Assembly (NCBI GenBank): GCA_023920165.1
Contig: CP089279.1
Coordinates: forward strand, 1 to 64,000
Direction: 5' to 3'
Length of the DNA stretch: 64,000 nucleotides
DNA from: Curvularia clavata
Lineage: Eukaryota
The translations under genes and the position numbers were made by a program. A model generated the notes under the pieces. The model was not told the DNA's origin, did not search any database, and worked only from the letters and a program-made list of their open reading frames with translations. Shown here piece by piece: positions 14,920-55,400 of this stretch (positions are counted from its first letter, which is position 1; each line of letters starts with the position of its first letter).

Positions 14920-15078
14920 TCTGGTTGAGTATAAGGCTTGAAGTAGGAGTAAGCTGGTAAAAAATGGTTATATGAGATTCTGAACGTAGCTGCATATTAA
15001 ATGCTGCATCCACTATTTATATTGTTTTAATGTGTTCGTTCTTTAATATAGGCGCTCTTATATTTACAATAGAGTGAT

Positions 15079-15230
15079 AGCTTTCATATTCACAGCTCTT
15101 ATATTCACAGCTCTCATATTCACAGCTCTCATATTTACAGCTCTCATATTCACAGCTCTCATATTCACAGCTCTCATATTCACAGCTCTTATATTCACAG
15201 CTCTCATATTCACAGCTCTCATATTCACAG
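15079..15230. repeat. 15-bp minisatellite (CTCATATTCACAGCT)n, about 10 copies
   Basis: Direct tandem array; variants are C>T only. Confidence 0.95.
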
Positions 15231-15775
15231 GGGAGCAGATGCTCTCTCCCTACAAAGCCTCAGACCTAAAAGGCTGACTCAGCTGTTATCTGCGCCACCT
15301 TTTGCTATGTTTCGCTATCTTTGCTCTCTGTTTCTCTTTGTTTTTGCTGCCAGGCTGTAGGCTGGAAAAACTCATTAAGTAGCGCTCTGATTGCCGTTCA
15401 AGTCTTTTTGCCTGATTTTCTGCTGTAATTAGCTCTATCTCTATGGTGTATTACCAAGACATCATCTGTACTTAGCTCAGTCAGTGTCTGCTATCTTTGT
15501 TTACTTAAGTAGATCGCTGTCGGTTACTATCTTCCTCTCTGTGCTACTTATACTGCGTGAAGTCGGCCTTATATGCACGTATGTATATATATTAGGAATA
15601 GATCCTATATTTAAATACTTTTTTTGACATGTTCCGGTGGCTAAAAATCTTTGATATTTAGGTATATACTAGAATATAATTCGCACTTTCTAATGCTATT
15701 CTTATTTTCTTCTAATGCTTATTATAGTACAAGAAATTGGTGAGTTCTTTACATAGCGATTCACTATAATATAAC

Positions 15776-15984
15776 TGTTAGACTGTTAGTGGCGTGAAGG
15801 TACAGCACGAGATAGATGAGAGAGAACTATGCTTTAACAGCCATGTATTCACGAGACGAATCGCTATCGAGCACCTCTAGCGATCGTGGAGGCTTTATAG
15901 CCTTAGGTAAGCCCTAGCTGACTAACTAGCGTGAAGAAGGAGGGAATTGGACCAACATGTCCCAATTTGGACCAGGTCCTGACA
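15776..15984 (-). repeat. 3' LTR of the chromovirus
   Basis: Direct repeat of 22897-23105; preceded on the minus strand by AAGAAGGGAGGTAT. Confidence 0.97.
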
Positions 15985-16577
15985 ATACCTCCCTTCTTAG
16001 GGTGCAGCTGTCCCAGCTGCGCAACTTATCATGCTTGCCGCCCAGTTTGAGCGATTACTGGGTGATGCCGCCGTGTGGGTTGGAGGGTGTATTTTACTTG
16101 CTCACCGCCCCAGGGCTATGACGTCATAATAGCGGAGTTTTGCGCTGCTGCCTAGCCGACTGCCCCACTTTGGGCCAACCCGGCCCATCAGGGTACTCCT
16201 GGGCAGCGCCAAGAGTCACGTGACGCGCTAATTTAGTGCGGATCCAGGGATACAATAGCCAGTTTTTGACTAAGCCCAGTACACCCCACAGTCCACCAAC
16301 CCCACTTTGGTAAGTAGACTCCCATTTTGTGGGTCTTCTCAGTTTGGGCCCGACACCTTCCACCCACGGTCTGTTTGCAACAGTTTGGCCCAATTTGGGC
16401 CAGTTTGCAGTCGACCTTGGTTTTGTTGCCTTTTTCTGAGGTTCTTCCCCTGGACTTGGAGTTTTCTGCTGACTTTTCTTTTTAGGCTGTTTCCTCCCAT
16501 ACGATCCATTTCGCGACAGATTCGACCGATTCGTCCCAAACACCCCCAAATTGGGGCCTTCAAGACCCACTTGAACC

Positions 16578-17643
16578 ATGACGAACGCACTTGGATCCGT
16601 CAACCGCAGTACGGTGTCAAACCTGTTCGTACGCAAGGGCCAGAGGTCTTACTACGCTTGTGTGTGCTGTCTGAACGCCTTCAGGGATAATGAGCCCGTT
16701 ACTTTTGGCAGAGCGGGTTGCGTTATGTTGGACATCGACAATCCTGAGGTAGCTGAGGCTTGGTCTGGCTACAAGGTTGAACCGGAGTCTGGCGGTATGC
16801 CTAGGCAGGTGATGAAGTGTCTTCGCTGCTCTTACATCAACCGTGTCTGTTTTGCGGTAAGTTGCCCTGTTTTGCTCTGATTTGGTCCAATTTGGAGCTA
16901 AATGAGTGGTTAGGTGCCTCCTCCCGACAAGTTCTCCCCCGACTGGGTGAGACTTGGCCAGCTCATTGGGAAGGTTGAGGATGCCTTCCATGCCATTGAC
17001 AAAGATATCCCCGAGGGTGCCAATGAGGCTGAAGTTCGTGCTGAGCGCAGGGAAATGTACGAGGTGGCCGTTACTAGGCTTAGTATGTTCAGCAAGCCTA
17101 TTGTTGAGTCACTCAAGAAGTAAGTGATCCAATTTTCCTAAATCTGGCCCAAATTGGACTAATTTGTGTAGGTTTGAGCCTCATGCTACTCATCTGTCTC
17201 TTTCCTCTGGTGCCATCGAGGAGGAAGATGATCCCCGCTCTGGTGTGAAGACTTCTGCCCTTGGCCGCTCCAAGAAGGATGAAGAGGTCAAGAGGAAGGC
17301 TCATGAGATCGAGGTGGAAACTTTGGTCGAGGCAAGGGTCAAGAAGTCCAAGTATGGCTCTGGTGGGCGCAAGAAGGAGGTTTGTGATCCTTTTCCCCCC
17401 TATTTACGCCAAATTGCCCCAATTTGGACTAACTTGGTTCTTTAGGTCAAGGTTGCCGAGGATGTCACTGATGAGCTTCAGAAGCGCATCAATGACATTG
17501 ATGAAGAGATTTTGCAAAAAATGTCTGAGAAGGAGGGGGCCAAGGGTCAAGCCAAGAGGAAGATCACCAATGACATCAAGAACTTGGAAAAAGCCAAGGC
17601 AAGGCTTAACAAGGAGTACGAGGCCGCAGTTGCCGGTGATTAA
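16578..17643 (+). CDS. Antisense accessory gene within the chromovirus, 4 exons, 296 aa, Cys-rich N-terminus and charged coiled-coil C-terminus
   Basis: Exons 16578-16856, 16914-17119, 17172-17379, 17446-17643 join into one open frame; introns are GT..AG with CTAA(C/T/A) branch sites; CVCC..C..CLRC..C motif. Confidence 0.85.
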
Positions 17644-17931
17644 GGGTGGTTGGGTCTAGTTTTGTCCGTTTTGGCCCAAATTGGGTCAGTATGGGCTATG
17701 GTGGTTTTCTTCCCTTTCATATGAGATACCCAGGGCATTAGGATGGAGGTGATAATTGAAATTCTCTTTTCTTTACTTTTCCATTCCTTGGTTTTTGTTG
17801 TGCAATGTCAGTTCAACATGGACCAATTTGGGCCAGGTTGCCCTAATCAGCTTATGCCGTTAAACACCTATAAAACCCTTTGGGGAAAAAAGTAGGTGAA
17901 GGTACATGTGCTAATTTGGCTCCTATTGGCC

Positions 17932-20900
17932 CTATTTGGCCCGTTTTGGCCCGCGTCTGCGTCGAGGGACCTGATTTGATTTGTTCCAGAACTCTTGAAG
18001 CGTTTTCTGGGTAACATTGGCGGCTGGCTCCCATGTGTTTTCAGAGTCGGGGTATCCAGTCCATTTCACTAAGTATTCCCACTGATCGTCCTTGTTCTTC
18101 CTATGTCCCACTATTTTGTCCACGAGGTAGACATCGTCGCCTGTCTCGCCTAGTTCGTGTTGTGTTGGGACTTCAGGATGTGGTATATCACCTGGGGGGT
18201 GATACTGCTCTAGTAAGGATGCATGGAACACTGGGTGTACGTTTTTTAGGCCAGGCATATCTACTTTAAATGCTGATGGGCCGATTTGCTCAGTTATTGT
18301 GCCTGGGCCAACGTATTTCCAGTCGATCTTCTTCTTTGGTCGCAGGGATTTAATATGCTTATTAGATAGCAGTACTTTATCCCCTACCTTAAAAGGAATG
18401 GGTTGTCTTTTCTTATCTGCGTGCCGTTTTTGGTACTCTTGCGCTTTTAGAATATTGTTCTTGCACTCTTGTTGTATTTCGATTATTCTTGAGGCAGTAC
18501 TTGCCGCTAGGGGGTTTTCGCCCCCAGTTTGGGCGTCTTTGGGCCATTCTGCGCCTCTTGGGTGTATGCCGTTGCATGCTTGGAAGGGGGTGACCTTGGT
18601 AGTCGAATGTACACTGTCATTGTACGCGTATTCCCCTACTGAGATCCATAATGCCCAGTCGTCCTGCTCTAGGGAACAGTAGCAGCGGAGGTACTGTTCT
18701 AGAGTCTGATTTTGGCGTTCAGTCTGGCCATCTGTTTGTGGGTGGTATGCCGAAGTAAGTACACGTTTCGAGTTAAGGTAGTGAAGAAAGGTCTTCCAAT
18801 GGGTGGAGTTCATTAAAGGGCCTCTATCTGATATGATTCGGCGTGGTACGCCATGGAGACGGATTACTTCGCGCAACCATGCCTGAGCTAGGTCTACTCC
18901 GTCCCAATTGGACCGTGCTGGCACGTAATGGGCCATTTTGGTCAGTCTGTCGACTATCACGAGGATTGCGTCGTATACTACGCCTTGCAGTTTGCTTGGT
19001 GGCAATTCAGTTATAAAGTCCATTGTTACTTCCTCCCAGGCTCTATTGGGTGGTGGTAATGGTGCAAGGGGCCCGTATGGCAGGTGCCGTTTCGGGGTAG
19101 ATTTTTGACAGATAAGGCATGATTTGCAGTAGTCTTCCACGTCTTTCCTCATGCCAGCCCACTTGTAGTGGCGCGTTAGTTTCTCTAATGTGCGTCTTGC
19201 GCCAAAATGTCCAGAAAGCGGGTCGTCGTGACCTTGTTTTAATGCTGCTGCTTTTTCCTGTGCCGTCTTGGGCACGGTTGGGCCAGAGTGGCCCTGTTTG
19301 AGCCTTTGTGGACTTGGTTTGGCCACGTCGTCTTCTTCTGAGCTACATGAGTCCGAAGTGTATTCGTCCGTCTCTGAGTCGGCCTCTTGAGCCAATGCTG
19401 CATGCCTCTGGTCTTCATGTTGCTTCGCTGCTGTATTCTGCCGTCCTTGTGATCGTGTGGTGGTAGCTGCAGCTATAGCAGTCCCTTCGGCATTGAATTT
19501 GAGCAGATGGCGTAGCGATGGCACATATGCGCTATTATTCTTCTGCTTTGGCTCTTGGGCGGCTTTTATGTAGTCGGGTCTGCGCGATGGGCCGTCGGCG
19601 GGGTTTGTTTTCCCAGGTTGGTGTACAATTGTGAAATCAAAACCTGATAGGGCTAAGTAAGACCGTACCTGGCGGTGATTCAGTGTTTTGGTTTCCATGA
19701 ACCACTTCAGGTTTCGATAGTCAGTAATTAGATCAAAGTGTATCCCATCAAGATATCTTCGCCAGTGTTGGAGACTAGCGACGATAGCTAGTAGCTCTTG
19801 GTCATGCGTGTCATAGTTGTACTCCGCGGCGATTAATTTGCGCGAGTAGAAGTCTACGGGTCTCCAGCAAGCCTCTTTGGGCACGTACTGGCTTAGGATG
19901 CCAGCAATCGCTCCTCCCGACGCATCGACCTGTACTCTAGTCTGATTGTCTGGATTAAAGTGGGTTAGGATAGGTACTGCCGTAAAGGAGTTTTTTAGCG
20001 TCTTAAACGCGCTCTTGGCGTTTTCGTCTAGAATTAGCAGTACGCTTTCCTCTTTTCGCTGAGCTTTGCCCCCTTTGGCGGCGTTCGGCTCCTTTTTCAG
20101 TAACTCAGTTAAAGGCAGTGCGATTCTGGAGAAGTTAGCAATGAATCGACGATAGTAGTTCATGAAGCCTAGAAACACGCGGACATCGCGCACTGTACGC
20201 GGTTCTGGCCATTCTTGGGCCGTTTTGGCCCGATCTGGGTCGATACTTATACCCTCGGGGCTAACTGTGTAGCCAAGGAACTCAGTGTGTTGGGTGTGCC
20301 ATTCACACTTCGAAGTCTTCAAATACAGCTTGGCTTCGCGCAATCTGTTTAAGACTTCGCGCACGTGTCTCTCGTGCTCCTCTTCTGTGTTGGAGAACAC
20401 CAGAATATCGTCCAAATACACAATACAACTCACATCTACCAATCCTGCAAGGATATGGTGTATGTACGCCTGAAATTGTGCAGGAGCGTTTGTAAGGCCA
20501 AAAGGCATCACAGTATACTCGAAATGGCCGTATCTGGTGCGGAAGGCTGTCTTCCACTCGTCTCCCTCCTTAATCCTCACCCTATGATATGCTTCTCGGA
20601 CGTCTAGCTTGGTATAGAATTTTGCCTCAGCCAATCTATCCAAGGACTCCGTAATCAAGGGTAAAGGGTGACGGTTTTTGAGCGTTATGTTGTTTAGACC
20701 TCTATAGTCCACACATAACCTCATCGTGCCGTCTTTCTTCTTCGCGAAGAGTATTGGTGCGCCTGCTGGCGACTTCGAATGTCTAATCCACCCTCTCGCG
20801 AGATACTCACGCAAGTAATCCCGGAGTAGCGCTAACTCGCTCTTCGAGAGCCCATATAGCGGCTGATGTGGTGGCGTGGTGCCTTCTTTCAAGGTTATCA

Positions 20901-21584
20901 CCAAATCGTGCGGGCCATGCTCAGCAAGGCACTTGGCATCCTCTTCCGAGGCCAAATCCGCAAAGTCCTCGTACTGTGGTGGCAACTGAGGCAACTTGGC
21001 TTGATCAGGGCCAACCTGGGCGTTCTTGGGCTTCTCCAACCCCTCCCAGTCCTCTTCCTCGTCGCTTGGGTCCCAACCCATCACAGTGGACACTTTGAGC
21101 GCGTAAACGTCCGTCGTGGGCGTTCGGAGTGTTTTCTCAAACTCTTCGGCGCTTTCTGTCGCGATTTTCTCATATGAAGCCCTATCTACATATTTCACGC
21201 CCCTAAATAGCACTCGACGCGACCGGAGGCTTATTTTGGGCTTGTAGAAGTCGACCCAGGCATACCTAAGCATACTGGGTAATGCTTCATTTCTGTCACC
21301 ACAAAAGGTATATTCTGGAATTTAGTCCTCCCTCTTGTGTCTGTGACTTTCATGGTCACCTCTGTAGTGCCATAAATCTCAAACTCCGCGCCGCTTAAGG
21401 CTTCTGCCACTAAGTTCGGTATAGGAGTTATTGTTAAATCGTGATCCTTGGCTTGGTGGATTGAGAGTAGATTTAGTTGAGACCCTCCATCTATCAGCGC
21501 TTCGAGTGGATCTTGGCCAATTTGCACCGTTATGGTCAATAGTGGGCTAGGTTTGCTGAACATTGCTTCGCGAAGTGTCTTCAA
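17932..21584 (-). CDS. pol: Pol polyprotein (protease, RT, RNase H, integrase, chromodomain); one-base frameshift near 21259
   Basis: ALIDGGS protease; YLDD RT; VDASG RNase H; HHCC integrase zinc finger; YLVKWTGYPDSENTWEP chromodomain. Protease frame is -1 relative to gag. Confidence 0.95.
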
Positions 21585-21631
21585 GTCCTCTTCTAGCTCT
21601 AGCCTTGCAATATGGGCGGAGAGTAGGGCTA

Positions 21632-22864
21632 CTAGGTTCTCCGCCCCTTGCCTTTTTCCAGTTTGGGTTCCTCAGGTGCCGCTTGGCTTTGTTTGTGCTT
21701 ACTACAGTTCCTGCTGATGTGTCCGGGTTCCCCGCAGTTGTAACAGACAATTTTGCCCTCTGCGTCGCGTCCTCGAACCTTGTTTGCCGCGTATGAACCT
21801 TTTGTATCCGCAGGGTTCCGTCTTTGTTTTTTCAGGGTTTTTTCGTACCCTCTTGTGTTCTTTGGTGGTGTGCCGCTCCTGGCTTGCTTGTTCTGCGTTG
21901 TTCTAGCGTTGCTAGGCTTCTCTCTTTTCGTTCTGTCCCAGATAAGTCGCGCTCGCGCGTTTAGGTCTGAGATTGTGCTTCTTTGACCTGGTTCGAGTAA
22001 AAGCAACTCTTTCTGTATTGTCATTGTCAAAGCGCCCATAAAGTCCCTCACTCTCTGCTCTTCCGAGTAGGCATTGCCCAATTCGGACCAAAGTGTGTCC
22101 AATTTGGCCAACAGGTCGTTTGGGTCCTGAGACCAGTCCTGTCTGATGTGTTTGAGAGCTCGGTGGGCTTCAAGCTTCCGCTGTTCTGGTGGTCCCAGTG
22201 AATCCACCATTACAGTCTTCAGGTCTAGCCACGTGGGTGTCCAATTCGTGTCTTTTCTACAGTAGTCGTGATAATAGGCGTCCCATGTGGAGCGTAGGGG
22301 GTCAGTGATATACCTAAGCCCAAAATCGATCTTGACTGCCTCTGTTTGGAACGTTTTAGGGCTTCCCCTAAACGTTGCCTCACATTCGCGTTCCCAGCGA
22401 TTGTACTCGGCACGATCGCGGCTTGTGAACTGTGTTGGTTTTTCTGGTCGTGGAGCTCCCACGTTTGGTTCTAGTTGTATCCCCACCGCACGGTGTGGTT
22501 CATATAGGTCCTCTGTCAGTGCTGTCGTGTCACCTTGGTCGAACCGACGCTTGATTTCCTGGAGACGTTTCAGTTCTTGCTCGTCAAGCGCTCGTTGCCT
22601 CCAAGCGCGCAGTTCGTCTAGCTGTTGAGCAATGGTGGTCTGAGGTGGTTCAAGTCGAGCTGGGCTGCCCTGAATTGGGCTTCTCTGTGCCAGTTCGGCC
22701 TGATCTGCCTCCGTGACGGCAGGCTCGGATAGTTCACTTGAAGATGGCTGGGTTGAGTCTCTAGTTAGAGTGGGCTGTGAGTCCCCTACTACCGTGTTTC
22801 GAGTTGACCTTGGGCGGCTCCGAGTTTGGCGACTACCTGGGTTCGGCATGGCTCTCTCTGACAT
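21632..22864 (-). CDS. gag: Gag (410 aa) with CCHC zinc knuckle
   Basis: Intact ORF right after the 5' LTR; CYNCGEPGHISRNC. Confidence 0.95.
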   Translation of the reverse strand: MSERAMPNPGSRQTRSRPRSTRNTVVGDSQPTLTRDSTQPSSSELSEPAVTEADQAELAQRSPIQGSPARLEPPQTTIAQQLDELRAWRQRALDEQELKRLQEIKRRFDQGDTTALTEDLYEPHRAVGIQLEPNVGAPRPEKPTQFTSRDRAEYNRWERECEATFRGSPKTFQTEAVKIDFGLRYITDPLRSTWDAYYHDYCRKDTNWTPTWLDLKTVMVDSLGPPEQRKLEAHRALKHIRQDWSQDPNDLLAKLDTLWSELGNAYSEEQRVRDFMGALTMTIQKELLLLEPGQRSTISDLNARARLIWDRTKREKPSNARTTQNKQARSGTPPKNTRGYEKTLKKQRRNPADTKGSYAANKVRGRDAEGKIVCYNCGEPGHISRNCSKHKQSQAAPEEPKLEKGKGRRT

Positions 22865-22896
22865 CTCGTAGGTGTACTTGAGGAGAGCGATTCGAA

Positions 22897-23105
22897 TGTT
22901 AGACTGTTAGTGGCGTGAAGGTACAGCACGAGATAGATGAGAGAGAACTATGCTTTAACAGCCATGTATTCACGAGACGAATCGCTATCGAGCACCTCTA
23001 GCGATCGTGGAGGCTTTATAGCCTTAGGTAAGCCCTAGCTGACTAACTAGCGTGAAGAAGGAGGGAATTGGACCAACATGTCCCAATTTGGACCAGGTCC
23101 TGACA
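22897..23105 (-). repeat. 5' LTR of the chromovirus
   Basis: Direct repeat of 15776-15984; TATAAA on the minus strand at 23015-23020. Confidence 0.97.
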
Positions 23106-23444
23106 ATAACTAGATTGACTAGAAGTAACTTGAAACATCGCGCTGATAAGCTTGTTTAGGGCCTTTGAAGCCGCTTGTTAGAGCTTGCTAGGCAGAAATA
23201 GAGCTTAACGTAGGGGCTGGGGATTAAGAGTGAGGGTATCTTCCTATTAACTGCTGTTTCGCCTTGCAAGAGTCTATATAATTACAAGAATAGACAGTAA
23301 GGTCTTATAGCGTAGAAGATCTAATCTAAATTATAGATATAAGTATACTATAAGAGTTATTGACAAAGATATATTTATATTACTTTGTTACTTTATCTAG
23401 TTATTAAAATAAATTCTGTTAGAGTCTTAACGCCATTATACTTC

Positions 23445-23715: not shown

Positions 23716-24411
23716 ACTTCTGCTCAATATTCTACTCTCGACGGTGCTATTTACTACTATCTACTACTACTTGGCAGAATTTTAGTAGAATAATGGTACA
23801 GCACGAGATAAATGAGAGAGAATTGTGCGTTAACAGCCGTGTATTCACTAGACGAATTCCTACCCTATACTAGTTTAGGTGATTTATGCAGACTTGTATC
23901 AATTTTCTGCAATTTAATACTATTTTATGCAAATGATGACTGTACTACTACTTAGTATTTTTTACTATAGTACGCGGAAATTTTCTACTGTTTACTGCTA
24001 TTTACAACTATTAGTCTTACAATACTAGAGTACGAGAGAGATTTTCTGACTTGAAGAACTATGCACCCGCAAGTCAGAACTCCGACAGAGTATAGGAACT
24101 ATGTGCATCAATATTATATACATATTTGCCCCTTTAAGAATCCTAGTTAAATAGATCGACTATGCAGGAAAGTATGGTAGAGTGGATTGGCGGTTCTGGT
24201 GGTAGTTCAAGTATTGAGTATGCTAAACTGGGCTATTTACATCGATTGCAAGACTATTGCATTGTTTTTGTCTTATGTACGATCTAGTTAGTAAAACGTC
24301 TATCTTGACTATCTAAGCAAACCTTTTGTTGCTTAATTTAGCTACCTCTCTTACATGTTCTCAACTCCTCAGCCCTACTGTCCGATTGATCGCAGTCTTA
24401 ACAGACTAGTC

Positions 24412-27400
24412 CTAGGCGTTGGTTCCACTTGAGCTCGTAGTAAACATGCCCTGTGACTGTTGAGACCAATCGACATTATCGCTTTCATCATTACCGCTAA
24501 CACCTTCGTGGCTAACACCTTCGTGGCTATCACCGCTAACGCCTTCGTGCTCAATCTCCTCCAACTGGTCCGCAGGGTCAAAAGAAATCGCAGCCTTGTT
24601 GTTGATGGTAGAGTGAAACTTATTGAGTATGTCCTGCATGGGGAAACCGTCTATCTGCTACTGCTTGACTGTTTTGGGGCGGTGCTGCAGATTAATAAAA
24701 GTCTTGTTTCTATTGCACTAGACAATGGCTCCGTAGTAGGCAGACTCGCGATACCGATAGCGATTCTTGCCGGTGTAGTGAGCGCTGACAGCGTCGTGGT
24801 CGCCAATCATGATGAGCAGCGAGCGCGCGCGGCCATTGGCAAGAAGTTGACGAGCGTTGTCGCGTGTGAAGCCGAGATCGCCGGCGACCGTAGTGTAGTA
24901 GATGATAATATCCTTCTAGACACTCTGCATCTTGTCTACTATAAAGTATTCTACCTTGGGGATCCAGGAGGCGACGCGATATATGAGTGAGCTCTTTTCC
25001 TGCTGTAGACACTACTTGGCGATGGCGTGCTGGGTAAAACGATATGCGCCGACCTAGGTAGTGTATGTGGAGATGATGGCAATTTGCGACGCTTCGAAAC
25101 CCTTATCTAGTAGACGGAGGACGATCTTCCATACGGGACCTACGAAGCTGTCGTTGTAGCGGGACTTGGAAGATGGCAGGCTTCTATCTTTACTAGGCAG
25201 GCTTATAAAGATCACTCGCTTGGGTGCTTTAAACAACTTGTTGGCGCACGCAGAAGCCAGCTGGTTAGCTTGCCAGTCATCTACACCGGGGGCGACACTC
25301 ATTTGACTACGGGGAATTATAGAATTGATGAAATCGTTAATATCACTGTTGGACTGATGCTATTTCTGGAGCCAAACAGTATTATAACTAACGTTGACTA
25401 GACGCGAGAATAGGGGGACCGTAGTCTACTCTCTAAAAGAGTGAGACTGAGCGCTACGACTAAGAAGGGGCTCGGGCTGGTAAATGTCTCTAAAGAGTAC
25501 ATGAGGGATGTGAGTGTTGGGAAGTATACTTATAGGCCTAGCGCCCACAGTGTATGGGCGACTGAACACAAGAGCGGCAAGACTACCGTACTCTAGCGTC
25601 TTCCCAGCCTCATCGTGTAGGACAGCGCTGGGCTGGCCAAGCTGGTGGGCACGAGTCTGGGACACCACGTCCGGTGTTATATAGATGCCGTTGGCCATGG
25701 TCGCAAGATCCGCTACAATCTGGTTTGCCAACAGGGTCAGTCGCGTCATCCGATCACTATCGAAGGCGTCACCCTGTGACAGAAATACAAGAAGTTCCTG
25801 GAACTCCGTGTACTTGTCAAGGTCTGCAATTTCGTGCAGTGCCCCATCTGGCTCTAAAACACTAGCGCGACGGAGGATCTAACGCCCCTCAGAGAACTCC
25901 TCGAGTTGGAGACGCTTGTCAAAGTCAGTAGAGTGGTTGCTCGCATATTCGCGCTGGATACGCGTCGCTGCAATTAAAGAGCGGGCGAAGCGCCTCTATT
26001 GCGTCTCTAGTCTGGTCTCCTCGTCCTCTTCCTCGGCGTCGTCATCATCATTATCATTATTGGTATCTTTGGTGTCTTCGGGTAGGCCTTCAAAGTAAGG
26101 AGGTAGTGTCTCGCGTCGGACGTGCATGCGCTGAGCTTCGGCCTCCTTTCTATACACCCGCTTCTCTGTGCTGCCCATGTGTCGTCGAATAAAGATTGGT
26201 GGCGGCGCGTCGATGCCCTCTCTCAACAGATCGCTGCGCTCTTCTTGACATCGGTTGAAAAGCTTGACTGTGATGTCGTCCAGCTGCTTGTTGATAGGTG
26301 ACACGGCCCAGATCGGAGGAGTAAGTCGTTTTGTCTTATCTTGTGCGCGACGTGCCTCCAAGCGGTAATGGAGTGCACTAAGACCAACTAAAATCTCGGA
26401 TTTACCTACTCCACCTGGGCCTTGTACTAGGAGAAGACCTGCGTGGATCTGGCGCAAGGCGGTTAAGACCTGTAACTGCTCTGTACTAAGTCTAGCTGCC
26501 ATATGCTGCAGCTCTTGAGCAACAGCATCCGCCCTGTAGACCTGTGTGAGACTCTCGAAGTAGTCGACCGTCGGTAGGCTTCGCGTGTTGTTTGCCAGTA
26601 ATAGTTGTATCTCTTGGCAAAAGCCCTCTTGGCTAAGGTACATGTGATTGATTGTGTTGATGGCGCGCCTCACTCCAACCGTGGGAACCCGCTCGCGAAT
26701 GTAGTATCTGATGCCAGCTAGGTCTCCTATAGCGTCGCGTAGATCCTTTGAAGATTCGAAGTTCGTAGTGTTGACGATATGAATGCCCTCTTTAAACACA
26801 GGATCTACGACGAAGCTTCTCTGTAGACGTGGGCGGCGGAGGTACCTAGCGTACTTATTGGCATGGGTGTATGGCGTCGCTGTGATGATCTGAAATTGCT
26901 ATAGCTTTTCTTTGGGATCTTCCTAGTCTCTAAAGCACACGTCCAGCGTTGAGCCCTTACGGAAGTGAGTATTAGGGGCGTCATCTTTCGCTGGAGGGAT
27001 GACAATATGCGCGTAGTATAACTGGCTGGCACCAGCTAGAAACGTAGCAATCCGTACTCTGGTAAGCGTGTACCCGGGCCTCTCGATGCTCTCGAGCTCG
27101 TGGATCAGATTCTAGAAGTGTATCGTAATGTACTCCTCTAGGCTTTTGAAGGTGTACAGCTTGCTGATTTTGAAGCCGGCGGGGCGATCCTCTTTTCTTA
27201 TCTGTATGCCAGCCTGGGGATTGACCTTATTTTGGGCCCACCAGCGTAGAATCGGGTTCGCAGAGTGCTCTTGCTCTATAGTGGCCATCACGTCTATTAT
27301 GCGAGACGCTAGAGTATCTATAGTAATGGTAAAGAAATGGATTGTCACCACGTCAGCTCTGGCAAGTATATCCCGAGCCTGATGCAGCTGTGTGGTGAAG

Positions 27401-28497
27401 GGACTAAAGTTGGAGTCCATATATATCGCACGACTAAATAAAGGACGGTTAGTCTCGTCAACTGGGTCTTGGTTGCTGTTGGTGCGCACACGTAGCCGGA
27501 TGTAGAGAAGTTTCATTTCTTCGCAGTAGTGTAGTTGTCTCTAGAAGATCTTAATGTCTTGAGCAGGGACGTGCTTTGCAAGTAGAGCATCGGCGGTCTC
27601 AATCTCTATAACACTACAGTCGACAATATTCCTGTATAGAAATGTGATTGCGGCAGACTTGTGCTCGCGACTACTGCGGGTAGTAGGGGAGTTGAACGAC
27701 CCTTCGAAGTCAAACCCAATTGAAGACGCATGCTGAGGCTGGATGATAGTAACGAGCCTCGTGGTGAGACATTGTGCGTTGTCGTCAGCTGGGAGCCCAC
27801 CTACAGGCGGAGCCAGCTCCTCGTCGCTGGCGGTGGTAGTCTCGGTGTTGATGGGCGCGAACTCCGTCGTGGGCTCTGTTGTGGGCTCTGTCGTGGGCAC
27901 TGTTGTGGGCTCTGTCGTGGGCTCTGTCGTGGGCTCTGTCATGGACTTTGTCGTGGTAGTAACGCCAAGGGACTGAACTCTTATTATGCAATCGTCCACT
28001 AAATGCCCGAGCTGCGAGCAGTTACTACACTTCTTCCTCGTGTAGTTGTCTGTGCCGTGGCTCGTGTCTCCACAAGACCGGCAAGTATGGCGTTGTTGCT
28101 GCTTCTTCGCTTTCACCTTTTCTGGACACTCTCTAGCTATGTGCCCGCGCTCGCCGCAATGCTTACAGAGAGGAGGTATTGGATAGGCAATCTTGAGATG
28201 GCCCTGCTTGAAGCAGTTACTGTAGATAATGGAAGGGCACTGTGACTTGACGTGTCTATACTCGTCGCAGTTCTTGCACTTCTGCATCTTCTTTTTGTTG
28301 GGGCACACGGCTTTCTTGTGACCAAGCTTCTGGCAGATGCCGTACTTGTAGTCCTCAAGATTGGGCTCTCGTAGCTGTCCCAAGGTGATAGAGCTGTCGC
28401 CATGTTCGATTACCGCAACTCCTACCACAAAGCGCCGGTCGGCATGGTGGACCGCCGTGGTGCTGGTTAGATAGTGGTGGACCGCGGAATTAGCCAT
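24412..28497 (-). pseudogene. Zinc-knuckle plus Upf1-like SF1 helicase gene, intronless, RIP stops
   Basis: Fragments at 28497, 27516, 26799, 25749, 25302, 24639 share one frame; about 6-7 CCHC-type knuckles, TTEP repeats, QGPGGVGKS, HDEAG, AIISTY, VDKMQ..KDIII, GFTRDNAR..GRARSLLIMIGD. Confidence 0.85.
27865..27945. repeat. 12-bp coding tandem repeat (TCGTGGGCTCTG; TTEP on minus strand)
   Basis: About 6 tandem units. Confidence 0.9.
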
Positions 28498-40200: not shown

Positions 40201-41778
40201 AAGCCACACAGCTTCACACAATCTCTAAATTATAGATCGAAGACGGTCTAGTAAAAAGCTTTACCAGTTGATTAAGATCTTGTCCCGATCCCACGATACA
40301 AGGCCAGCAGGAGCAGCGTGCTTGCCCAACGTTCTAGCGAGCGTGCGGAGACGTAGCATGCGGTTCATAGGCGTGGCATGGTCCTTCAGGGTTGACAGCG
40401 ATATAAAAGTTACTACGCCGCGTCCTATATATGTATAAAAGGCGGAAACGTCGCCTAGCACCCTAGCTCCTAAAACCAAGTACTTTTATTCATACCAGAT
40501 CCAAGTGTTATAAAGAAACAGCACCTTAGAGGTCGTGATAAGCGCAGAGAGAATGGGCGAGAAATTCGCAGCCAAGTGCCAACCCCCTCCAAGATGGTCG
40601 TCCTTTAGCGCTAGAACCGCCACGCCACTAAAAAGCGGGCTCTAATACTTATTGTCTGGGAGAAGGTGACTTAAGAGACTGGTCTAGAACTGCGCGCAAA
40701 GCCGTTCGAGATCCTTAGACACGATAGAGTTCACTGTAGCTGCTTCTGTAGATGTTCGTATCTTGTTAAGTAAGAGAGACTGCTCGTCGCGGAGCTTGTA
40801 TGGCGCCGAGTCTGGGTTGTTCGATGTTCTCTATATATAACACAAGATCTTGATGACGTGACCACTATACAGCTTGATAGTACGCGCCTGTTGGCCAATA
40901 TAAAGTGGCTTCTCATTGGATTCGGCCCCAGTCTCTCGTCGCTGGATAATCTCCAACGCAGGTCGACCCATAACCCCACTGCGACAGAGTCGAAAAGCCT
41001 TGCGTATGGCTTTGCGCAAGGCCTTGCATGTAGCTATTAGACCGGAATCTTGTGAACTGCTGGACTGTGGTAGATCTCTAGACTCCTCACCAGGAGGAAG
41101 GCGAGCGCGCAATAGATCCCCGCGCACTCTGCCTTTTAGATGAGGAAGCTAACCCGTTAGCTCAAGCTATGGATTGGGTTGCTGGCGGTGCGGCTCTTGG
41201 ATCGTGCTCTGTGCTGCTATCGCGTCTTGTTCGGCTTGTAGGCGCTGCTTCCTGTTAAGGATAGTCTGATATAGATTCGCTGTGTCTCGTCTAGGAGGCA
41301 TGGTTTTGACAGCTAGATATGCAGGCCATCTGGATGCCCGGAATAGGCGTTGGCAAGACTGCTATTCAGCCTAGGGCCGCGGGCTGCGCTGCTGGGCCTT
41401 CTTTCTTATATCGCCGCCTCGCTTTATATGGTTGATCTAGCTATGAGTTTTCCTACAATGGGTTATGATGCTTTTTATTGCAATATAGGTATAGTAGCAG
41501 TCTATTTCCTGACACACAAATGCGTTATGCCGGCATTCGAGGACTGGAATCAACTCTCCTGCCTCTCCTGGTAGCTGTAGCGCTTCGGGTGTCCATGCTA
41601 AGTTGGGTAACGTACGTACGGCTTCGGCAACTAGTCGTCGGTTAGCAACTGATACCTGAGGATGGCGCGTTTGAAGATGCGTCGCAATCTGGCTGGGGGG
41701 AATAGCAATAGCGCATGACTGGCAGACAATGATTTGAAATTCTGGTTGGTGATTAAAGATTTCTGTAAAGACATCCAT
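37213..41778 (-). pseudogene. Telomere-linked-type RecQ helicase (about 1520 aa, single frame, RIP stops)
   Basis: N-terminal C2H2-like IVCQSC..HLQTRH (DUF3505-like); GAPARGTE; MGTGSGKS, VIDECH, LTATLPP, ATNMLGLGLD, EESGRAGR; Cys-rich C-terminus; seven ORF fragments in one frame. Confidence 0.9.
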
Positions 41779-42227
41779 ATTTTCTAGTGTAGCGCAATAT
41801 TTACTGAGCTAGCTCAGAGAAACTGCCAAATTTGAGGGAATACGTACTCTCTTATTAGATAATATAAATGCAAAATGTTATATAATACTATCGTGGTGGT
41901 ACGTTACCCTCGCGAGGGTGGAGATAATAAGCTGACTTGAGAGAATATGGGCCCTTGTCAGGGGAAATAAATTTTAGTAAAATAAGCAATAACTACCATA
42001 TAACTACTATATTCCTAATGGTATATAGCGTATCACCCTAGTAAGGGCTGAAACTATAATCTGATTTGACGGACCGTGGGCCTGTATATCAGGGGATACG
42101 TCCGTGCGCGTTTTCTTATAGATAAGCTTCACTGTACGTCATCTTGCTCGTTATAATATTAGCATTTCCCTTACACGATATACACGATATACACGATTAT
42201 ACTTGCATAATGTGGTCACTCGAACTA

Positions 42228-52410: not shown

Positions 52411-55400
52411 ACTAACAACACACCAACTTCGAGTTTTCTAGAACAGGTGTAATATTAGTCAAATATATACAAATAAACCCCAGGAAATCGATTACAACCA
52501 CTATTAAAACGTGCAGCCTACGCGCTGTAGAGCTAGAGGCCTTCAAAGTAGACACGTTTGGACACGTCTCACTTCTGACAGAACACACAGACCACGCCGA
52601 TTACTAAGCAAAATGCCGCCAGACAGCGATACTATCGACGTCGAGCTACCAAGGACAAGGCAGGAGATAGCAGAGCTAGAAGGACAGATCTAGAACGAGA
52701 TAGAAATGGAAGCTACGCAGCCTACTACCCCCGCTCAAAATCTAGAAACCTCTAATATATTTGAGATACCTATTCTACCACCAAATAAAAGATAAGCAAA
52801 TTTCTCACCAGAGAAGACTCGCACTCATAGACGCACTAGGAGTAACTTCTCTCCTTTTATAGGCTCGACGCTAAGGAATCCTTGCTCAAGCCAGAATAGG
52901 ACACCTAAGGCGACGACAATAGAAGAGGCTCTTGAGATAGCTAGGAAGCTAGTAATCCAAGCAGCTAATCTAGCTGAAAACAACCCTACCCAGCAGACTA
53001 GTCTACTAGATCTAGTAGAAGTCTTCAGAGACTATACTGAGACAGGTAGAGTTAGTAAGAAGAACTCAGCAATCCTAGGAGATCAGATCTCCTCTCTCTC
53101 AAATGTCTCAAAGGAGCTTAGAGACAAAGTTCGACGCCTTGATAAGCCTATTCCTGCACAACCAAACCAGCAGGGTATTAGCCAGGCAGCTGCTTCTGCG
53201 CAGCCTACCTCGTACGCTGCAGCTGCCACAAACGCAGTAAATAAGGAGCAACAGTGGACCACTATACAAAGAAGAACTCCCCAGAAAAAAGCTCAACCTA
53301 GTTTAAAAGAAAGGCAGCTAGTCCTAGTTAATCTAGGAGCCCCTACAGCCTTTGATGCCCTTGGGCTAAGAAACGCGTTTAACTAAGCCTTTACCTCTAA
53401 AGGAGGTGTACGATCGCCTGTAGTAGCGTCAGTCACGTTATCCTCAAAAGGCAACAAAATAGTCACTACCACGCCTGCCTTCACAGCTAAGTACCTACTA
53501 GAAAACTAGAGTATCTGGAAGGACCTAGTAGCCTTTAAGGCAGCGCAGCCTATTACATCGTGGTTCAAAGTAGTTCTCTATAAACTACCTACAAACCATA
53601 GCCTAGAAGCGATTAAAGAGGAGATTGAGACCTTCAACAAAGGCCTTAAAGTAGTAGGCACCCCTTTCTGGCTCACCCCTAAGTCTAAGAGGGGACAGCA
53701 GAGCTATGGCTCTGCCTGCGTCGCCTTTGCGACTGAAGACGAGGCTCTAAAAGCTATTAGAGGAAAGCTCTATATCCTAGAAGAGAGCCTTAGAGCAGAG
53801 AAGTTACGAGTTATTAATAACTCAAAGCAGTGCTCAAAATGCCAAGGATTCGGCCACCTAGAGGCTACGTGCGCGAGAGTAGCCTATTAGATATATTGTA
53901 AGGCTCACTATACCAGGCTACACAAATGTAAGTCCTGCCCTACTAAAGGCAAAGCCTGTATATATAATATTTTCAAGTGCGTTAACTATAGTAAATCTCA
54001 CGTGGCTAATAGCCACGAATATGATGTCCTACAAGCCAGGATATCTAGGACTACCTCTTCTAGCTAGAATATTAAAAGTCCTATAAATAAATATTAATAG
54101 AGATAGTCTAACTACTAAGAGCGCGTTAGATCTAGCTATTAAAGTAGACGCCAAGATCGTCGCAGTACAGAAGCCCTGGCTACCTAAAGGATCCTCGTAC
54201 GCAAACACTAGATCTACCGCTCACCAGGACTTTACTCAGATATTACCTACCCCTAAGGATACCTCCTTAAGGCCTAGGATACTATTCTATATTAGAAAAG
54301 ATCTAGAAGTAGAGGTTAATCCCTTTATTAGCGACGGTAACGACTTTCTAGCTATTAAAGTACTAGCCTCTACTTCTAGCCTCTATATCTATAACATTTA
54401 CAACGAGAAAAGCCTTCAAGAAGGGCTAAATAAGACGACAATCCAGAGGCGGCTCCTACAGGAGACTTCAACACCCACCATCCTAGGTGGAGCCTAGAGG
54501 AGACTAGCCCTAGCACGATAGCAGAGGATCTAGTAAAGTGGATAGACGCTCAAAATCTCACTCTACTAAACACTCCAGGGGCTGGCACCTTCTTTAGAGC
54601 TCATATGCGGAAAGAGAGCGTATTAGATCTTACTTTAGCAACCAACAATATAGCTACTAGTATCCAAGACTGGCAGACTATACCTAAAGTTAGATCTAAC
54701 TACGACGCTATTCTATTTAGTATCTATACAACTAGCCAGCCTCCTAGCCAGCTACCTAGCCTACTAAAACAGTATAATACTAAACGAACAGACTAGACAA
54801 TCTTTAAGGAGACGCTAAACAAGAAAATCAAAACGCTAGATCTAGAGGAGCGACTATCAGCACTACCTCCCTACTCAAACTACACCTCAAGAAAGCTTAT
54901 TCTAGAACAAAACATCCCGCTAGAAACTAAGCTAGACAAGCTAGAAGAAAATCTCACAAAGGCTATACAGAACACATTAGAAAAGTCAACTCCGCTAGTC
55001 AGCCAAAAGCCTAAGCCAAAGGCTTGGTGGACGAGCGAGCTAGATAGCCATAGGCGAGACCTAAGTAGGGCCTACAGAGCCTATAAGAAGGAGACAGAAA
55101 AGGAAAATAATAGCTCCCTCTACCAATAGAAAAGAGAGTGCCTATATACAAAAAATAGATACTTAAAAGCTATTCGACGAGCTATGCAAAACCATTAGAA
55201 GACCTTCCTTCAAAAAGACTCGCCAAAAGAGATCTTTAAAGCACTAGCATACACTAAAGATAACCTTAGTACTTAAATATCTACTATTAAAGGTAAGGAG
55301 TCGTTTACTAAGAAATACAAGGCTTTTAGAGAGAATCTCTTCCCTCCACCTTCTACAATAGCCACCCCCTTCTTCTACACCTATAGAAGAGATAGCAGAT

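Follow-up and report, generated by a model that had tools for sequence, protein, structure and literature searches.

In plants, long terminal repeat (LTR) retrotransposons with extra genes in antisense orientation have been known for decades; in Botrytis they have been known since 2011, the year of the paper by Zhao et al. (Virology 417:248) in which Boty-like elements with the gene brtn were reportedly described. Boty-like elements of Botrytis cinerea and Sclerotinia are Ty3/gypsy chromoviruses, and brtn is their antisense gene (passages of PMC8365987, PMC7264820, and PMC4227169). In plants, the function of the antisense open reading frames (ORFs) is not known, and the products of some of them are nuclear, according to the relevant passages of PMC7264820. 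A system of another kind is that of VANDAL21, whose protein VANC21 binds, in the passages available from PMC5735166, a nine-base motif lying in one orientation and often in tandem in the non-coding parts of the element, including the introns of its own gene. Here, a stretch of 64,000 nucleotides of Curvularia clavata (positions 1 to 64,000 of contig CP089279.1, assembly GCA_023920165.1; this whole stretch is referred to as the window) was analysed, which contains a complete Ty3/gypsy chromovirus of 7.3 kb on the minus strand. An antisense gene, referred to as the accessory gene, lies between its pol gene and its 3' LTR and is accompanied by phased arrays of a short motif. The antisense layout is already known from Boty/brtn and the plant elements; the motif arrays are the new part.

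The motif CCAAWTTGG occurs ten times in the window, against 0.43 copies expected (standard deviation 0.66, largest value 2), a count that none of 100 dinucleotide-preserving shuffles reached, and every copy is located inside the retrotransposon, i.e., none in the remaining 56.7 kb. A first-pass annotation, made from the sequence without database searches, had listed nine of these copies (15962, 16390, 16546, 16887, 17149, 17419, 17676, 17823, and 22099) and had named enrichment over background as a check; all nine are exact, the enrichment is found, and the remaining one, at 23083, is the counterpart of the LTR site (15962) in the second LTR. If one mismatch is allowed, the window contains 31 matches, 21 of which belong to the element (7.3 kb), leaving 10 for the remaining 56.7 kb. 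The interval between the pol stop codon and the 3' LTR, where the opposite-strand (+) gene resides, is 1947 nt long; all seven of its exact copies fall outside the exons, within 1056 nt, and the 891 nt of exon sequence contain none (binomial p of about 0.014, by manual arithmetic). The exact positions agree with the earlier description of a motif that marks the LTR, all three introns, and both flanks of the antisense gene and that is missing from its exons. It had also been placed just before the branch sites: in each of the three introns the motif does end 1–2 nt before CTAAA, CTAAT, or CTAAC, read here against CTRAY, the fungal branch-site consensus, but this adjacency is largely forced by geometry because the introns are just 52–66 nt long. 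The branch-site region resembles a decayed next unit, as in CTAACTTGG, which has two differences from CCAAWTTGG.

The nine-base motif is real and element-specific, but it is just the core of a longer site that is also found in pol. In the non-coding parts, the k-mers TGGCCCA, GGCCCAA, and TTTGGGC are as strongly enriched as the A/T core, and the full form is a 15-bp palindrome, GGCCCAAWTTGGGCC (GGSCC-N5-GGSCC), which is perfect at 16387–16401 and has one mismatch at 17673 and at 17820. The basic unit is the 8-mer TTTGGSCC, strand-biased and repeated at an exact 10-bp phase. Tandem Repeats Finder (TRF) called three 10-bp arrays (16384–16407, with period 10 and 2.4 copies, 16862–16884, and 17914–17952), and degenerate matches recur at exact 10-bp spacing, for example at 17908/17918/17928/17938 and 17396/17406/17416/17426, as well as at 18521/18531/18541, 19270/19280/19290, and 20207/20217/20227 in pol. 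Six pairs of GGSCC in the element stand at lag 10 and none at lags 2–9 or 11–19, against none at lag 10 outside; the lags between units cluster at 10 (six pairs), 20 (three), 30 (two), and 40–41 (three). The pattern GGSCC-N5-GGSCC is present twice in the accessory region and three times in pol, against 0.01 expected in each (the observed number was reached in 0 of 200 shuffles), and never in the 56.7 kb outside the element.

The units are oriented as well as phased. The element (7.3 kb) has 13 copies of the sequence TTTGGNCC and three of its reverse complement, against a single copy of TTTGGNCC in the remaining 56.7 kb; with at most one mismatch, the element contains 36 forward and 16 reverse units, against 31 and 34 outside. 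Those in pol fall in all three codon phases, so they are not explained by a repeated peptide. The four phased arrays of pol correspond to amino acids 348–351, 650–664, 910–913, and 1108–1111, outside the Pfam domain envelopes; about half of pol lies outside these envelopes, and the placement of arrays between them is, alone, only suggestive. An NF-I-type site, TTGGC-N5-GCCAA, was considered and rejected, since the order of the half-sites and their spacing do not fit.

The accessory gene is real and spliced, and the 296-aa product attributed to it in the first-pass annotation is obtained from the translation of its four exons. Four sequencing runs (X9, X10, X19, and X20) were aligned to the window. 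A metatranscriptome contig of X19 that lies on 17444–17678 carries an overhang of 25 letters, 23 of which match the end of exon 3, so intron 3 has been removed exactly at the predicted site; this support is specific but thin, consisting of one contig with fewer than 31 letters on its short side. X9, X10, and X20 yielded just unspliced or sparse contigs, among which one of X10 runs unspliced through intron 3 and one of X9 through intron 1, as expected of DNA or of sense RNA. The motif signal is robust, richer than first described, and tied to a real, expressed accessory gene.

The same runs offer some further observations on this region. An X19 contig of 84 nt on 16685–16739 has an overhang of 29 letters that matches 16600–16628 at 26 positions, so a GT..AG stretch of 56 nt within exon 1 (16629–16684) has been skipped. 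This skip, which would delete C28–C31 and shift the frame and across which another X19 contig is unspliced, may represent either an alternative intron or a deletion copy. Between 15700 and 22896, nearly all differences of the contigs from this copy are C>T or G>A (13 of 15 in X10 and 8 of 8 in X19), and a single X10 contig of 240 nt shows 16 differences; such an excess would be the signature expected of repeat-induced point mutation in other copies. At least half of the 31-mers of the 2.2-kb accessory region are present in eight of the runs X1–X20, which bear four organism labels (A–D), and the region is partly present in metagenomes from air, soil, surfaces, roots, and wastewater; the element family, or its host, seems to be widespread.

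A scan of metagenomes for related loci retrieved one locus, L001, and scans of viral contigs with exon 1 and with the C-terminus of pol gave no match. The layout of L001 is the same, with an LTR end, a polypurine tract, a leader, exon 1 (46% identity), and introns 1 and 2 at matching positions. It contains one exact 9-mer only but three GGSCC-N5-GGSCC pairs, where 0.01 would be expected (a number reached in 0 of 300 shuffles). Of the six lags of up to 45 bp between its GGSCC sites, all but one (29) are multiples of ten, with 10 found three times and 30 and 40 once each. Its arrays are located at the same four landmarks, i.e., downstream of TGACGTAA, 37 nt before the ATG (a near copy), in intron 1 (1851–1912, at the same intron position and of the same array type), and in intron 2. 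The array at 1100–1134 aligns with that at 16161–16186 of the window, and the non-coding DNA around the L001 arrays is otherwise poorly alignable. The spacers of L001 are AATTT, GAATC, TCCTT, and AAATC, against AAWTT eight times in the window; their variation indicates that the conserved part is the phased GGSCC, the A/T core being a feature of this lineage. A separate observation concerns the first 13 nt of intron 1, GTAAGTTGCCCTG, which are identical in the window (16857–16869) and in L001 (1851–1863), with flanking exon DNA about 60% identical, so the intron start is more conserved than a splice site needs. The coordinates of the arrays and of the other features are reported in Table 1.

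Table 1. Features of the chromovirus, its accessory gene, and its motif arrays (positions in the window; units counted with at most one mismatch)
Feature	Position	Strand	Remarks
3' LTR	15776..15984	-	209 nt, TG...CA, direct repeat with 22897-23105
5' LTR	22897..23105	-	209 nt; exact motif at 23083-23091
Target-site duplication ATAAC, 5 bp	15771..15775 and 23106-23110	.	read from sequence
Polypurine tract adjoining 3' LTR	15988..16002	-	read from sequence; conserved block in L001
gag, 410 aa, CCHC zinc knuckle	21632..22864	-	one exact motif, 22099
Aspartyl-protease frame, separate from gag and pol frames	21231..21671	-	stop-to-stop ORF
pol, 1113 aa: reverse transcriptase, RNase H, integrase, Tf2-type SH3, chromodomain	17932..21273	-	Pfam
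Accessory gene, 296 aa, 4 exons	16578..17643	+	open spliced translation, GT..AG introns
Exons 1-4	16578-16856, 16914-17119, 17172-17379, 17446-17643	+	spliced translation
Intron 1, 57 nt	16857..16913	+	exact motif 16887; 10-bp array 16862-16898
Intron 2, 52 nt	17120..17171	+	exact motif 17149; array 17135-17165
Intron 3, 66 nt	17380..17445	+	near copy 17409, exact motif 17419, array 17396-17440
CRE-like palindrome TGACGTCA	16119..16126	.	presumed promoter of antisense gene; TGACGTAA in L001
LTR U3 array, three units	15939-15975		matches 15939, 15949, 15959; exact motif 15962-15970
Array with phased pair GGGCC-N5-GGCCC	16161..16186	.	42 nt downstream of CRE-like site
Perfect 15-bp palindrome GGCCCAATTTGGGCC	16387..16401	.	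zero mismatches; within 10-bp tandem array 16384-16407
Motif copy	16543..16558	.	35 nt upstream of accessory ATG
Array right after accessory stop codon	17653..17697	.	matches 17653, 17663, 17673, 17683; exact motif 17676
Near-perfect palindrome GGACCAATTTGGGCC, 1 mismatch	17820..17834	.	about 30 nt around it resemble LTR copy
Four tandem 10-bp units across pol stop codon	17908..17952	.	TRF period 10, 3.9 copies
pol phased arrays	17935-17952, 18516-18555, 19270-19304, 20207-20241		
gag array, three units	22075-22110		holds exact motif 22099
Forward units, non-coding accessory sequence			13 in 1056 nt
Forward units, pol			17 in 3342 nt
Forward units, antisense exons			1 in 891 nt
Forward units, outside element			31 in 56,670 nt

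The accessory protein was searched and modelled exon by exon. A phmmer search with exon 1 against 1.84 billion representatives gave seven matches, six of which share a cysteine pattern; N15, C28, C31, G44, G47, C48, C81, R83, C84, C91, and A93 are invariant in these six, and the seventh match (P0004) is an unrelated repeat protein. Five of the six relatives are short ORF calls of 92–104 aa that comprise the exon 1 domain alone, most of them extending a few codons beyond a conserved 'AV' at the exon 1 boundary. The remaining relative (P0002) is a hypothetical protein of 309 aa from Alternaria gaisen (KAB2098925.1), in which the same cysteine domain is followed by long helices; when it was folded alone, the model had a predicted local distance difference test (pLDDT) value of 51.9, with the C-terminal helices 249–305 as its only confident part. 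The sole match of P0002 in a set of 5.8 billion proteins was itself, and exon 1 gave no match among longer proteins. Pfam returned nothing for exon 2 at E ≤ 0.1 and, for exons 3 and 4, nothing at E ≤ 0.01 beyond a sub-threshold coiled-coil-like match, and a search of the ESM Atlas with the cysteine domain gave unnamed bacterial clusters at 0.92, with recognition below its mark. The spacing of the six cysteines is C28-X2-C31-X16-C48-X32-C81-X2-C84-X6-C91. Zn(II)2Cys6 (Gal4-type) clusters have the spacing CX2CX6CX5-12CX2CX6-8C, to which just the last three cysteines conform; this identity was rejected, as was that of DUF3716, with no Pfam match to either at E ≤ 10.

As to what the arrays might do, the reading that we favour, and which we hold tentatively as a possibility, is that the CCAAWTTGG copies are the centres of putative cis-acting DNA docking sites, the preferred binder being the protein encoded by the element's own antisense gene. 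The phase of one helical turn, the palindrome, the co-orientation of the units, and their upkeep at many places, coding sequence included, point to DNA sites read by a protein and not to a neutral repeat. The full site GGSCC-N5-GGSCC is formed by TTTGGSCC units repeated at one helical turn (10 bp) and, since this is the pitch of the repeat, several protein molecules could line up next to each other along the same face of the helix. Arrays fill all the stretches in which coding imposes no constraint (the U3, the three introns, and, around the antisense gene, its promoter, 5' leader, and 3' flank), and others are squeezed into pol between the Pfam domain matches. The candidate binder might act through its conserved six-cysteine domain and through C-terminal helices, the latter by analogy with the 309-aa relative, and might bind as a dimer or as a higher oligomer; once bound, it might keep the chromatin or the promoters of the element active, either as a transactivator or as an anti-silencing factor. 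Four steps of this scheme are inferred: action of the arrays at the level of DNA, their binding by a protein, the identity of that protein, and its effect. A wider version of this scheme appears doubtful to us: the family would encode its own sequence-specific DNA-binding regulator in antisense and would have seeded phased sites for it in its non-coding DNA, the introns of the gene itself included, and in linkers of pol. The regulator would then cover the element from end to end and maintain its transcription, or shield it from heterochromatin, as a retroelement and fungal counterpart of VANC/VANDAL, and the introns would have been partly retained as carriers of sites.

Several results weigh against docking by the accessory protein. 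The exon 1 domain and its relatives have no Pfam family at E ≤ 10, and the AlphaFold model of the cysteine domain is of moderate confidence (pLDDT 70.8). Foldseek against the PDB gave seven rows for this domain, all with E > 4, VIA-align 0 of 48,161 chains at Z ≥ 2, BFVD 0 matches at E ≤ 0.001, and the PDB profile search a best E of 0.75; the net charge of exon 1 is just about +3 (manual count). Given the lack of both a Pfam family and a fold match, the 296-aa protein is a candidate binder only. The comparison of arrays is based on one relative, L001, and the U3/LTR copy is missing from it. The strand bias is also expected of an RNA signal, and the GGSCC half-site does not differ between two elements with accessory proteins that are just 46% identical, so a conserved host factor fits as well as the element's own protein.

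The arrays might, therefore, be binding sites of a host transcription factor, used as enhancers for the LTR and antisense promoters. We regard this as rather unlikely, if nearly as likely as binding by the accessory protein, since the half-site has not changed while the proteins diverged. Candidate binders would be the CCAAT-binding complex and a MADS-box protein of the Mcm1 type, the consensus of which is CArG-like (CC-N6-GG with an A/T-rich core) and is matched by CCCAAWTTGG. CCAAT is present on one strand in all ten exact copies, and about six of the ten fit a CC-N6-GG 10-mer; the phased variants do not fit, many units (CCAGTTTGG, CCGTTTTGG, and others) have no CCAAT, and neither consensus accounts for the GGSCC flanks or for the exact 10-bp phasing. 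In the U3, the copy is found about 65 bp upstream of TATAAA on the sense strand, adjoining a second GGTCCAAT, and the CRE-like site at 16119–16126 is conserved nearby; however, the LTR of L001 has no copy, and none of the ten exact copies falls in the 56.7 kb of host sequence of the window. It seems still less probable that the unit acts as an RNA signal, which would read GGSCCAAA in sense genomic RNA and whose palindromes would form GC-stemmed hairpins or intermolecular duplexes. Improbable to the same degree are a role of such RNA structures in packaging, dimerisation, or nuclear export, in which Gag or the accessory protein might take part (Rev/RRE-like, or in the manner of CERV of Cer1), and, alternatively, an influence of the arrays on the splicing of the antisense pre-mRNA. 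A retrotransposon third protein required for the export of genomic RNA has been reported (PMC10309623). The strand bias (13 against 3 for the sequence counted above) and the location of every copy within the span of the genomic RNA agree with an RNA function, and since the 5' LTR and the gag ATG are just 32 nt apart, a packaging signal would probably be located elsewhere. The palindrome at 16387–16401 folds into a hairpin with z values of -2.6 and -3.0 on the two strands, and the motif of introns 2 and 3 is paired with a complementary copy close by. The intron folds are nevertheless unremarkable (z from -1.4 to -1.9, a fold equalled by 8–17 of 200 shuffles), the z of the four-unit array at 17900–17955 is +0.2, arms are complementary in only six of nine phased pairs, which is near chance (manual count), and a phase of 10 nt has no obvious meaning in RNA.

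Two explanations without a specific reader were also considered, both of them very unlikely in our judgement. DNA patterns in which A/T-rich and G/C-rich segments alternate every 10 bp favour nucleosome positioning, and the exact period of the arrays, with WWWWW alternating with SSSSS, might bend the DNA anisotropically and set the rotational positions of nucleosomes or curve the DNA; the arrays, however, are 20–45 bp long, well below nucleosome length, and it is the specific letters GGSCC that are conserved, beyond base composition. The 10-bp units might otherwise be a neutral by-product of slippage or template switching during reverse transcription that has persisted where harmless, which would agree with their tandem arrangement and with their scarcity in the antisense exons; the targets of VANC are also thought to grow by the formation of tandem repeats (passages of PMC5735166). 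Such an origin is difficult to reconcile with a unit that recurs at about 17 separate places, that is found in each of the three codon phases of pol, a coding sequence in which slippage by 10 bp would disrupt the frame, and that is kept at matching landmarks in L001 despite poorly alignable non-coding surroundings.

As for the element itself, the order reverse transcriptase–RNase H–integrase with a C-terminal chromodomain, the LTR ends, the duplication, and the polypurine tract make it a Ty3/gypsy chromovirus (Metaviridae). The domains of pol are, in order, RVT_1 (5.7e-38), RT_RNaseH (1.5e-29), Integrase_H2C2 (4.6e-19), rve (8.1e-8), SH3_Tf2-1 (1.1e-13), and Chromo (7.9e-17), and the protease frame matches Asp_protease_2 (E 1.2e-4) and gag-asp_proteas (E 3.2e-4), both below the curated cut-offs. 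The two LTRs are 100% identical over 209 nt, which, together with the flanking ATAAC duplication, indicates a very recent insertion. The gag (21632–22864), the 146-aa protease (21231–21671), and the pol frame (17932–21321) lie in three different frames that overlap by 40 and 91 nt; calculated manually from the positions of the stops, their order fits two successive -1 frameshifts (gag-pro-pol), as in some retroviruses. The gap between the 5' LTR and the gag ATG (22865–22896) has no tRNA-type TGG primer site, and the sequence adjoining the LTR is complementary to a 9-nt stretch within it (15855–15870), about 30 nt downstream of TATAAA, a complementarity that suggests self-priming, presumably of the Tf1-like kind. 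The block TTCAC.AGACGAATC is kept in L001.

In the surroundings of the element, about ten tandem copies of a 15-bp unit, AGCTCTCATATTCAC, are located at 15064–15243, 550 nt outside it. A fragment of 82 nt at 23776–23857, in AT-rich surroundings 670 nt past the element, is 84% identical to the start of the LTR and is probably the remnant of an older, mutated relative. A fragment of a non-LTR element (endonuclease-reverse transcriptase) lies at 54434–54796 (+), and three further remnants of mobile elements or genes on the minus strand (27541–28497, 25996–26799, and 41440–41808) comprise another gag-like ORF of the CCHC type, a fragment of an AAA_11 helicase, and an OrsD-like ORF. The first-pass annotation had also drawn a parallel with an intron motif in a hAT element of the window, but such an element was not recovered: none of 22 ORFs searched at E ≤ 0.001, nor of 14 searched at E ≤ 1, showed a hAT domain. 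The host is a Dothideomycete, and a major facilitator superfamily (MFS) transporter gene near the chromovirus has its best named matches in Pleosporales (62–66% identity).

The locus can finally be compared with the systems that it resembles. The gene HBZ of human T-cell leukemia virus type 1 (HTLV-1) is likewise a spliced antisense gene next to the 3' LTR, and its product and the accessory protein share a predicted helical C-terminal region that might regulate transcription of their own element; HBZ, however, is a bZIP protein of a vertebrate retrovirus, with no relation in sequence or fold to the protein described here, and we know of no motif arrays in introns of HBZ. The antisense ORFs of the plant elements Grande (gene23), RIRE2, Retand, and PvRetro13 share with the accessory gene their position and orientation between pol and the 3' LTR; they belong to plants and not to fungi, the likeness is one of layout, and no matched motif is described for them in the passages of PMC7264820. 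The closest layout is that of brtn, where a fungal element with a chromodomain carries an additional gene on the strand opposite to gag-pol, located between pol and the 3' LTR, as the gene at 16578–17643 (+) is here. The likeness is one of layout; none of the seven phmmer matches of exon 1 is named brtn, and no repeated DNA motif is reported with brtn in the passages of PMC8365987, PMC7264820, and PMC4227169. The literature on brtn/Boty and on antisense genes of fungal gypsy elements, as covered here (a scope that leaves out the 2011 brtn paper), contains no description of motif arrays, and a literature search on the motif strings returned just primers and probes. What this locus adds is an antisense gene that comes with a statistically robust candidate target, short and conserved in kind in a distant relative, which makes the role of such genes directly testable. 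If a host factor binds the arrays, they would show a young element recruiting host machinery along its whole length. If the accessory protein binds them, it would represent a new six-cysteine DNA-binding fold and a possible chromatin-targeting tool in fungi.

With regard to VANC/VANDAL, the parallel drawn in the first-pass annotation stands in anatomy and in form: in both cases, a short, element-specific motif is dense and co-oriented in non-coding parts, including the introns of the accessory gene, and partly in tandem (passages of PMC5735166). It does not extend to protein family, since VANC carries DUF1985/DUF287 and the accessory protein has no Pfam family. Moreover, VANDAL is a Mutator-like DNA transposon of a plant (Arabidopsis), whereas the element described here is a fungal LTR retrotransposon; both binding and loss of silencing have been demonstrated for VANC and would be predictions for this locus, and the strict 10-bp phasing and the palindromic full site found here are not described for VANC in the passages of PMC5735166. 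If the accessory protein does bind the arrays, retrotransposons, and not only plant DNA transposons, would evolve private systems made of a regulator and its sites.

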